64,000 nt of DNA from Escherichia coli (GTDB lineage Bacteria > Pseudomonadota > Gammaproteobacteria > Enterobacterales > Enterobacteriaceae), in assembly GCF_016026235.1 (NCBI RefSeq), contig NZ_CP065613.1; one strand, given 5' to 3'. Numbering within the stretch: position 1 is the first letter of the stretch; each line of letters begins with the position of its first letter. Shown here one piece after another: positions 38,001 through 41,000 of this stretch. Made by a program: the position numbers.

Positions 38001-41000
38001 TGCTCCTGCTCGCTGCGGGAAAATCCTTCCGGCATTACCACGTCCTCACCGTAGACGGATTCAATAAGAAGCCGGGCTGCGTGTGGCATCTGAATAGCGC
38101 CTTGCCCACGCAGCACACGCTGCGTCAGCCAGATTCGCCCATGATCGGGGTAGACAAATGCACTGTTACGCATCGCACTGCCAAACCATTCATCACCCGG
38201 AGAGTCGTCCCAGACGGGTGCCAGAATCAGCAATTCAGGAGGGGAACGCTCGTCTTTTCCGTCACGCTTTAACTGACCATTAATATCGCGAATATGCCGC
38301 TGTAATCGCCCCGCTCGCTGGATTAGCAAATCAATGGGGGCCAGGTCGGAGATCATTTCGTCCATATCGCAATCAACGCTCTGCTCCAATACCTGAGTGC
38401 TAATAAGGACTTTTCCGGCACGCTGTGAGCTACCTTCTTTACCAAAGCGTGCCAGCGTTTCCGTTTCAATTCGCTGGCGATCGCTAAAAGCAAAGCGGCT
38501 ATGAAAAAGTGAAAGGCTGGAAGCAGGAATGACGCCGCGGGCAAGCAGCTGACGATAAACCTTAATAGCGTCATCGACAGAATTCCGGATCCAGGCGATG
38601 CATTTCCCCTGACTCACCGCCGATTCGATACGCGCAATACACTCTTGTTCGCTATGAAGCCAACCCACGCTCACGCTACGCTCAACGTCTTTGCGCGTCG
38701 CTACCCGGTGTGAATTCACATTGGATTTCGTAACGTGCGTCAGCCAGGGGTAATCATCCTTTTCAAGGAACGGAGCTTCTTGCTGGCCCTCTGTACCCCG
38801 CGCAAAGGCGGCGACGAGTTTGTCGCGCTGCTGTTGGGATAACGTAGCAGAAAGCAAAATGACGCTGTTTCCACCACGCGCCTGCCGCTCGATCAGCCCT
38901 TCAAGAATGCATGACATGTAAGCGTCACAGGCGTGGATCTCATCAGCCAGCAGGATTTTGTTACTCAGCCCCAGAAGCCGCAGATTATTATGTTTGAACG
39001 GCATCACCGCCATCATCGCCTGATCCAGCGTGCCGACGCCAATTTCAGCCAGTAAAGCCTTCTTGTTACTGTCGGCAAACCAGGCTGCACATCCTTGACT
39101 GAACGCTTGTTCATCCGGTTCTTCTGACCCGACTAAATCACCGGACCAGAGTGATTCATTAAAGCGGTCCATTAATGTACGGGCGCTGTGTGCCAGCACC
39201 AGGCTGGGGCGGGATTCTGGCGAATAGAAAGAAAGCCAGGTTTTGACCAGCCGATCGTACATGGCATCGGCCGTTGCCATTGTTGGCAGGCCAAAGCGCT
39301 TTACCCGCAGCCATCAACCTGTGCGCCAGGATAAGCGCCGCTTCTGTTTTACCTGCGCCAGTCACATCTTCCAGAATAAATAACTGTGGCCCTGGCTGGC
39401 TGATATCCAGATCCAGTACCTTTTGCTGTAATGGTGTCGAGTGCTCAATAAAAGGAAACAGCGTATTAATTCCGGTGAAAGGTGCGGTTTCTGCTTTTGG
39501 AGGAAAGACGGTTAAGGCGTTTTGTGCCTGAACTAAAGTTTTCTGCCAGTAATCTTTAATATTCATTGTCTGTGCGACGCGTGGAAAAAATCGCGTTGAC
39601 GAACCCGTCCAGTCTGCGAGTACGACTGTTGCAGAGATATACCAGGAAAGTTGTTTTAAAAGTTCAACGCCCTCGTCATCATCCCAGAATGTGGGAATCT
39701 CTATGAGCGGAAACAGTGCCTTGATTGCAAGGAGAAAATCTCGCGCGGCAGCTTTGTCTTCAGGCAGAAAATTATCCAGCTCATCAATACGGTCAGGTGG
39801 TCGACCATGATGCCCGGTAGTTATGGACATCCACATCTCTATTACACGTGTAAGTTTACGAGAAGAGAGTGAAGATGAAGGAAGCAACTCCTCACATTCA
39901 CTTAAATAATAATTCCACAGCCAGTAACCCAGCGTTGAATGAGAGATCTTTTCGTAATTCTTTCTGGAACCTTCCGGAATCTTGAGTTCAGGGGCCAGGT
40001 AAAGTTGCTGAAAAGAGCGGGCAAATTTTCCAATATCGTGCCAGCACAGCAACCAGGCGAAAAATTGAGCCGCCTGTTCCTTGTCAGAAATCCCTAATTG
40101 ACGAAAATAATCAGCCAGCCCGAAGCAATTTCTTTTAACCATTAAATAGCCCATCGCGGCTACATCCAGCGAATGCCAGCAAAGAAGGTGATAGTCGTCG
40201 CCCCCGTCTTTCTCGCCGCGTCGGGTTTTTCCCCAGAAATCAAAAAAAGTCACAATATTTTTATCCTTCAGTAAACTTAAAGGATATTTACGCATATATT
40301 AAAAATTATCTGTGATATATATCAGCCAATAAAACATTTATATTGTGAATAAATTTATGATTTTCATTTGAAATTCATAATAATAAATAGAGACAATATA
40401 TTCACATAAAAAATATAAATTTAAAAAAGGGTGCAGGAGACCAAACCATCACAATTCAATACGCGGGGTTTTACCCCTGAGGGATCCCCAGAAAATTTAG
40501 TAAACCATTATCATATTGGTATACCGTTGCTGTAGAACTTTCAGCCCTGCGTCAAGTGACAGTGTGTTTAGTATGAGTGGAGAATGTCGAATCACATTCT
40601 CCGCCAGTTTTAATAACGAGATGACTCGCCTGTGCTTCACTGTATTTGCCTGATATTTATGATGTATCCCTTTGTTTTCCAGGCTGAAACCGCTTAACCA
40701 CATAATGATACTGGCTAATGTTGCGATCAGACTCAATACCGTGACCCGCCCGGATGAATGACTGGCACCAAACCGTAGTCCAAATCCCCAGCGAGGATTT
40801 TTTTCATCCCTGAAATTTTGCTCAATTTGCATTCTACGGCTGTATAATTTCATTACCTGTTTTGGCGAGAACTCAGTACTGTTTGTGAAAATAAACCATG
40901 GTGATTTCCCGGCAGTACGAGCTTTAGCCGTCACCGATGGTCTGGTTGCTCTTTCCTTCGAGCGTTTAAATCTACGACCTTTAGGCTTACTTTTATAAAG

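Follow-up and report, generated by a model that had tools for sequence, protein, structure and literature searches.

The type I-E CRISPR-Cas system of Escherichia coli is encoded by an operon in which cas3 comes first (cas3-casABCDE-cas1-cas2-CRISPR), located beside iap/cysD. In strains with an intact gene, such as EDL933 (WP_001233978.1) and D8 (WP_137471562.1), Cas3 is a protein of 899 aa that consists of an HD domain, two RecA lobes, and a C-terminal domain. To couple ATP hydrolysis to unwinding and to HD-mediated degradation of the target, Cas3 must have the Walker A loop and the other helicase motifs on one chain. Some type I systems naturally have two proteins, Cas3'' (HD) and Cas3' (helicase), which are split at the HD/helicase boundary and whose genes each have their own start. 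In Escherichia, Shigella, and Salmonella, type I-E cas loci are often found in a degraded state, with frameshifts, insertions of IS elements, and cas3 genes that have become pseudogenes (PMC2886076). Touchon and Rocha (2010) reported 17 partial versus 23 complete cas systems of the Ecoli subtype in Escherichia and Salmonella (PMC2886076).

Here we describe the cas locus in a stretch of 64,000 nt of E. coli contig NZ_CP065613.1 (GCF_016026235.1), called the window below. Its cas3 is the same gene in the same operon as in strains with an intact copy, and its nucleotide identity to the genes of D8 and EDL933 is 96%, but it lacks 11 nt between helicase motifs I and Ia and is therefore out of frame. 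The lesions of the present locus are an 11-bp deletion in cas3, the Q206* stop in cas7, and an ISEc60 element upstream of cas3 with a rearrangement on the xdhD side. We consider it highly probable that this is a lineage-specific loss of function, in which a recent 11-bp deletion shifted the cas3 frame between motifs I and Ia in a locus that was already non-functional.

RESULTS

cas3 is present as two pieces in different frames

The first-pass annotation had described two overlapping minus-strand ORFs in different frames that together make up one Cas3, and both pieces indeed match Cas3 models (Table 1). In a profile search with NCBIfam, the N-terminal piece matched TIGR01596 (cas3_HD) with 93 bits over residues 38 to 233 (cut-off, 43.45 bits); the gene still codes for an intact HD domain. 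The C-terminal piece matched TIGR01587 (cas3_core) with 182 bits (cut-off, 102.45 bits) but only at profile positions 69 to 324, and it covered positions 342 to 747 of NF007248. After repair of the frame, the protein matched TIGR01587 with 217.5 bits over residues 306 to 676. It did not reach the equivalog cut-off of NF007248 (PRK09694), scoring 424 bits against the required 569 bits, and therefore the assignment as Cas3 is based on the domain models and on the operon context, in which cas3 heads the casABCDE-cas1-cas2 operon with its CRISPR array, as is typical of type I-E. The intact genes that are 96% identical at the nucleotide level nevertheless bear the name Cas3 in RefSeq.

The repaired protein could also be aligned over about 750 residues to the Cas3 structures 4q2c from Thermobaculum terrenum (E = 1e-79) and 4qqw from Thermobifida fusca (E = 1e-66). 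These proteins, like the T. fusca structure 6c66, are distant homologues and served only to place the lesion in the fold. In the alignment to 4q2c and 6c66/4qqw, the break is flanked by two conserved motifs, GxGKTEAA (motif I) and LPTMAT (motif Ia), and it falls at about residue 333 of 899, inside RecA1, whereas the HD domain ends at about residue 233.

The upstream ORF is Cas3-like up to ...DVTGAGKTEAALILAHRLMAAGKA, its in-frame part ending with ...GAGKTEAALILAHRLMAAGKA. The 45 out-of-frame residues that follow have no similarity to Cas3 and run to a TAA stop at 39161-39159 (codon 379). The second frame, which is open from position 39313, reads (R)FGLPTMATADAM..., and its first ATG (39280) encodes the M of (FGLPT)MATADAM; on reading the sequence, no recognisable ribosome-binding site was found in front of this ATG. 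There is no single uninterrupted frame with all helicase motifs, as the 11-bp deletion leads to the stop at codon 379, and cas3 in this window is one pseudogene. The window is 100% identical to UGFA01000002.1 (GCA_900449985.1), where the two pieces appear as two separate proteins, both labelled 'CRISPR-associated helicase Cas3'. The exact protein of the upstream ORF is deposited as STM06206.1, and a 521-aa version of the downstream ORF is deposited as STM06207.1.

Table 1. Coordinates of the cas locus features and of the neighbouring IS element in the window
Feature	Position	Strand	Details
cas3 pseudogene, type I-E	37607..40295	-	2689 nt versus 2700 nt intact; one gap of 11 nt in the full-length alignment to intact genes
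Upstream ORF, 378 aa	39159..40295	-	HD nuclease domain, start of RecA1 with Walker A, 45 out-of-frame residues
Downstream ORF, 557 aa from first ATG	37607..39280	-	Remaining helicase and C-terminal domain; lacks motif I
Helicase motif I / Walker A codons (GAGKT)	39345..39359	-	From sequence; aligned to GEGKT of 4q2c, 6c66
Helicase motif Ia codons (LPTMAT)	39272..39289	-	Frame changed relative to motif I; matches LPTMAT of 4q2c and 6c66 in the alignment
Deletion junction	39295..39296	-	Site of the lost 11 bp (AGGGTTTGTTT), with the codons for Q-G-L-F
cas7 (casC) amber stop, Gln206 CAG->TAG	34782..34784	-	351-aa Cas7 cut to 205 aa
Remaining cas operon: casA, casB, cas7 (stop), cas5e, cas6e, cas1e, cas2e	31745..37509	-	
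CRISPR array	31306..31648	-	6 repeats, 61-nt spacing
ISEc60 (IS4 family)	40474..41773	-	1.3 kb; 22-nt terminal inverted repeats; NF033591 360 bits; annotated ISEc60

The frames are separated by an 11-bp deletion

The frameshift had been placed between motifs I and Ia, within positions 39285 to 39305, and this is where we found the junction (39296/39295). Alignment to intact Cas3 had been proposed to locate the indel, and against intact cas3 genes we found one gap, of 11 nt, without a second indel. This gap was the only one in cas3 when we compared the gene with at least five intact E. coli alleles (the comparators were D8, O157:H7 EDL933, O169:H41, MEI003, and three metagenome or draft contigs), and it is also the sole indel inside a cas gene of the window over the whole 8.9-kb operon. 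On the minus strand, the junction reads GGTAAAGCGC|TTTGGCC, and two genomes with nearly identical intact alleles, GCA_901482675.2 and GCA_002461615.1, read GGTAAAGCGC-AGGGTTTGTTT-TTTGGCC with otherwise identical flanks. Written in codons, the intact alleles with the flanks of the window have GCT GCG GGT AAA GCG C-AG GGT TTG TTT T-TT GGC CTG CCA, and the window has GCT GCG GGT AAA GCG C|TT TGG CCT at the same place.

The event was therefore not the 1-nt insertion or 2-nt deletion that had been suggested. The underlying frame logic was right, because a loss of 11 nt has the same net effect on the frame as a gain of 1 nt. When AGGGTTTGTTT is put back, a single ORF of 2700 nt is obtained, which encodes 899 aa, the length of the intact E. 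coli protein, and not about 895 aa as first estimated. Besides shifting the frame, the deletion takes Q-G-L-F out of the strand that leads into motif Ia. A protein search, limited to representatives of 90% clusters, showed that AAGKAQGLFFGLPTMAT is the common state across the Enterobacteriaceae homologues, and this is the ancestral peptide at the deletion site.

We also considered a complex event that included the flanking substitutions, as D8 and EDL933 have AGG AAA GCA where the window has GGT AAA GCG. This was rejected; O169:H41, MEI003, GCA_901482675.2, and GCA_002461615.1 have exactly the flanks of the window, so these differences are ordinary allelic variation. An Rfam scan of the window gave nothing at the gathering thresholds, and a promoter and terminator scan near the junction gave nothing exceeding the shuffled expectation. 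At positions 39287-39299 (minus strand), the junction reads GCG CUU UGG C, which shows a chance resemblance to the shifty CUU UGA C of prfB.

The deletion is recent and restricted to a small clade

Apart from GCA_900449985.1, the same junction is present in GCA_002466675.1, GCA_014155105.1, GCA_001907535.1, GCA_012752895.1, and GCA_021506395.1 and in the Logan assemblies of SRR30892832 and ERR9828666. Among the carriers of the junction (at least eight assemblies or read sets, GCA_900449985.1 included), the locus is 99.99 to 100% identical. Of the complete RefSeq E. coli genomes with this stretch, 2729 in total, none has the junction; in alignments with the window, all of them show the 11-nt gap. 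Because a loss of 11 nt of mixed sequence recurs in this way in many independent data sets, we regard the deletion as a genuine mutation. The possibility that a corrected read would restore the frame, which the first-pass annotation had kept in mind, is ruled out by the same junction in independent assemblies and read sets.

The region from cas3 to casA is 95 to 96% identical to that of about 2400 complete E. coli genomes. When we looked for a near-identical intact cas3 among the complete RefSeq genomes, the best match had only 96.1% identity, and the protein search in the 90%-cluster representatives did not resolve the closest cas3 allele. Intact sisters were found by exact-protein look-ups of the neighbouring CasA and the truncated Cas7. 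The intact 2700-nt cas3 genes of GCA_901482675.2 and GCA_002461615.1 each differ from the window by only 2 substitutions in 2689 nt. As these sister alleles still have the 11 nt, the deletion must be recent.

The cas7 stop is older than the cas3 deletion

The lesion in cas3 had been considered a second one, independent of a stop in cas7. We confirmed the cas7 stop (Q206*, CAG->TAG, at 34784-34782), and the codons beyond it remain open and in frame. Cas7 with Q206* is also encoded by GCA_901482675.2, GCA_002461615.1, SRR13609853, and a further relative (L022), all of which have an intact cas3; the cas3 alleles of the latter two are more divergent from that of the window. The same truncated Cas7 is present on about 25 to 38 public contigs. 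Since the stop is shared with genomes that have an intact cas3, it is older than the deletion, and the alleles thus indicate that the cas3 deletion is a later lesion, independent of the stop. Apart from cas3 and the stop in cas7, the cas genes are open and colinear with those of intact loci.

Two repeats of the CRISPR array have a GATG variant in place of GGCG, and the length of the array differs among the sister genomes. Strain D8 has a frameshifted cas2e of its own (D8 14374-14668), which is due to one extra C compared to the window at about position 31811 and is a further example of a cas lesion that arose independently in E. coli. In SRR13609853, one of the relatives with an intact cas3 and the stop in cas7, the cas1 calls are two pieces of 121 and 173 aa (8744-9664), so that this decaying locus may have yet another lesion of independent origin.

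ISEc60 is associated with rearrangement and loss of the locus

ISEc60 lies upstream of cas3, about 180 nt from its start, within the terminator hairpin downstream of a hok-family gene. GCA_901482675.2 shows a simple insertion, with the order cysH-hok-IS-cas3 and the target sequence GGGTAAAACC on both sides of the element. In the window and in the relative L010, the far flank of ISEc60 is not hok/cysH but the 3' region of xdhD (xdhD/xanQ). Such a flank points to recombination between two copies of ISEc60, and the rearrangement was probably an inversion of the interval from cas3 to xanQ. The xdhD-IS junction is also present in FDAARGOS_943, where ISEc60 interrupts xanQ.

FDAARGOS_943 (NZ_CP065615.1) is the closest complete genome, with 99.9% identity over xdhD-ygfK and 100.0% over cysC-iap, compared to about 99.0% or less over these flanks for the other genomes. 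At positions 10704-12001, it has the order cysH-hok-ISEc60-iap, and the equivalent of 40476..31285 of the window is missing. About 9.2 kb, with the CRISPR array and every cas gene, has thus been lost beside the same ISEc60 copy. At least 36 matches to ISEc60 were found in this genome.

A separate observation in these two relatives concerns rpoS. The window has an in-frame TGA at 20627-20629 (minus strand), where FDAARGOS_943 has CGA (Arg). This stop leaves an N-terminal part (...IVKELNVYL*) and, behind it, a remainder of 146 codons. In FDAARGOS_943, rpoS is annotated as frameshifted, at a site that differs from the TGA in the window. Because the sites of the lesions differ, these are independent rpoS null alleles in close relatives.

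DISCUSSION

The position of the break in Cas3 allows us to predict what the two frames can still provide. From the normal cas3 start, a product of 378 aa would be made, with the HD domain, the Walker A loop, and 45 nonsense residues but without motifs Ia to VI, and any product of the downstream frame would be devoid of Walker A. With no ATP-driven helicase-nuclease, CRISPR interference and primed adaptation would be lost, judging from the established roles of Cas3. The older lesion leads to the same expectation, because Cascade cannot assemble without full-length Cas7 and both processes should then already be abolished. From these gene sequences, we infer a loss of interference in this strain.

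Could Cas3 still be made by recoding? At prfB, the elements of the site are AGG GGG UAU CUU UGA C (bioRxiv 10.64898/2026.01.08.698412), and the cas3 junction shares with it the CUU-U slippery codon and the following C. The slippery motif coincides precisely with the junction, where a shift of +1 leads back into the Cas3 frame, so a prfB-like slip on CUU would give a fraction of near-full-length Cas3 that lacks four residues. However, the junction differs from prfB in having no stop codon, no properly spaced Shine-Dalgarno sequence, and no conservation. The A-site codon is UGG, a sense codon for Trp, and instead of an AGGGGG-type Shine-Dalgarno sequence at the required 3-nt spacing there is only GCGGGU, 6 nt away. 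In the intact sisters and in every other homologue, the frame runs through this site without interruption. The CUU-U motif arose only through the deletion, the intact sisters do not have it, and it is therefore no evolved signal. Moreover, Q-G-L-F, from the strand before motif Ia, would be missing from the product, and Cas7 is truncated too. We therefore consider recoding very unlikely, and the earlier view that there is no programmed-frameshift signal stands, as none of a known kind (an A-site stop or a spaced Shine-Dalgarno sequence) is present at the junction. It is likewise hardly to be expected that low-level slippage at CUU-UGG-C yields a partly active Cas3 that is four residues shorter or that the HD fragment has a Cascade-independent role.

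Another explanation would be a working two-piece Cas3, comparable to the separate Cas3'' and Cas3' proteins of some type I systems. Both pieces are still long open frames, and the HD domain model is matched in full. However, the window cas3 has neither the split at the HD/helicase boundary nor the separate starts of these natural pairs. The split lies inside RecA1 and parts Walker A from motifs Ia to VI, the upstream piece carries the 45 out-of-frame residues, and the first ATG of the downstream piece lacks a recognisable ribosome-binding site. In addition, the split is only 0 to 2 substitutions old and is limited to one small clade. This makes a functional pair extremely unlikely. A sequencing or assembly error in a cas3 that is in truth intact has virtually no chance of being the cause; GCA_900449985.1 (UGFA01000002.1) is a single assembly, and errors of the frameshift type are common in some long-read assemblies, but the loss of 11 nt of mixed sequence is not a homopolymer miscount, and at least seven other assemblies or assembled read sets, with different accessions, have the identical junction at 100% identity.

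We favour a stepwise decay of the locus. The older amber mutation in cas7 would have made the type I-E locus non-functional, and ISEc60 may then have been inserted upstream of cas3. Two outcomes would have followed: in the lineage of the window the 11-bp deletion in cas3 together with the rearrangement, and in FDAARGOS_943 the deletion of the whole locus. The cas3 deletion looks like decay under relaxed selection, and it was presumably neutral. That the downstream frame of 557 codons contains no further lesion fits a very recent event, and it is also compatible with some retained use. The weight first given to the cas3 lesion has to be adjusted in this light. The lesion is real, but as the older stop in cas7 had already made the locus defective, it is a case of routine pseudogene decay.

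The case described here is another example of ordinary cas-locus decay, of a kind that is already known, and the sequence is already public, annotated either as a pseudogene or as two fragments. The split cas3 should carry one pseudogene annotation instead of two Cas3 genes (STM06206.1 and STM06207.1). The CRISPR-Cas system of this strain is predicted to be unable to carry out interference, which has little significance beyond the annotation. A modest added value lies in the well-resolved decay series that is available within one E. coli clade and that may illustrate how a type I-E locus erodes after its function has been lost.
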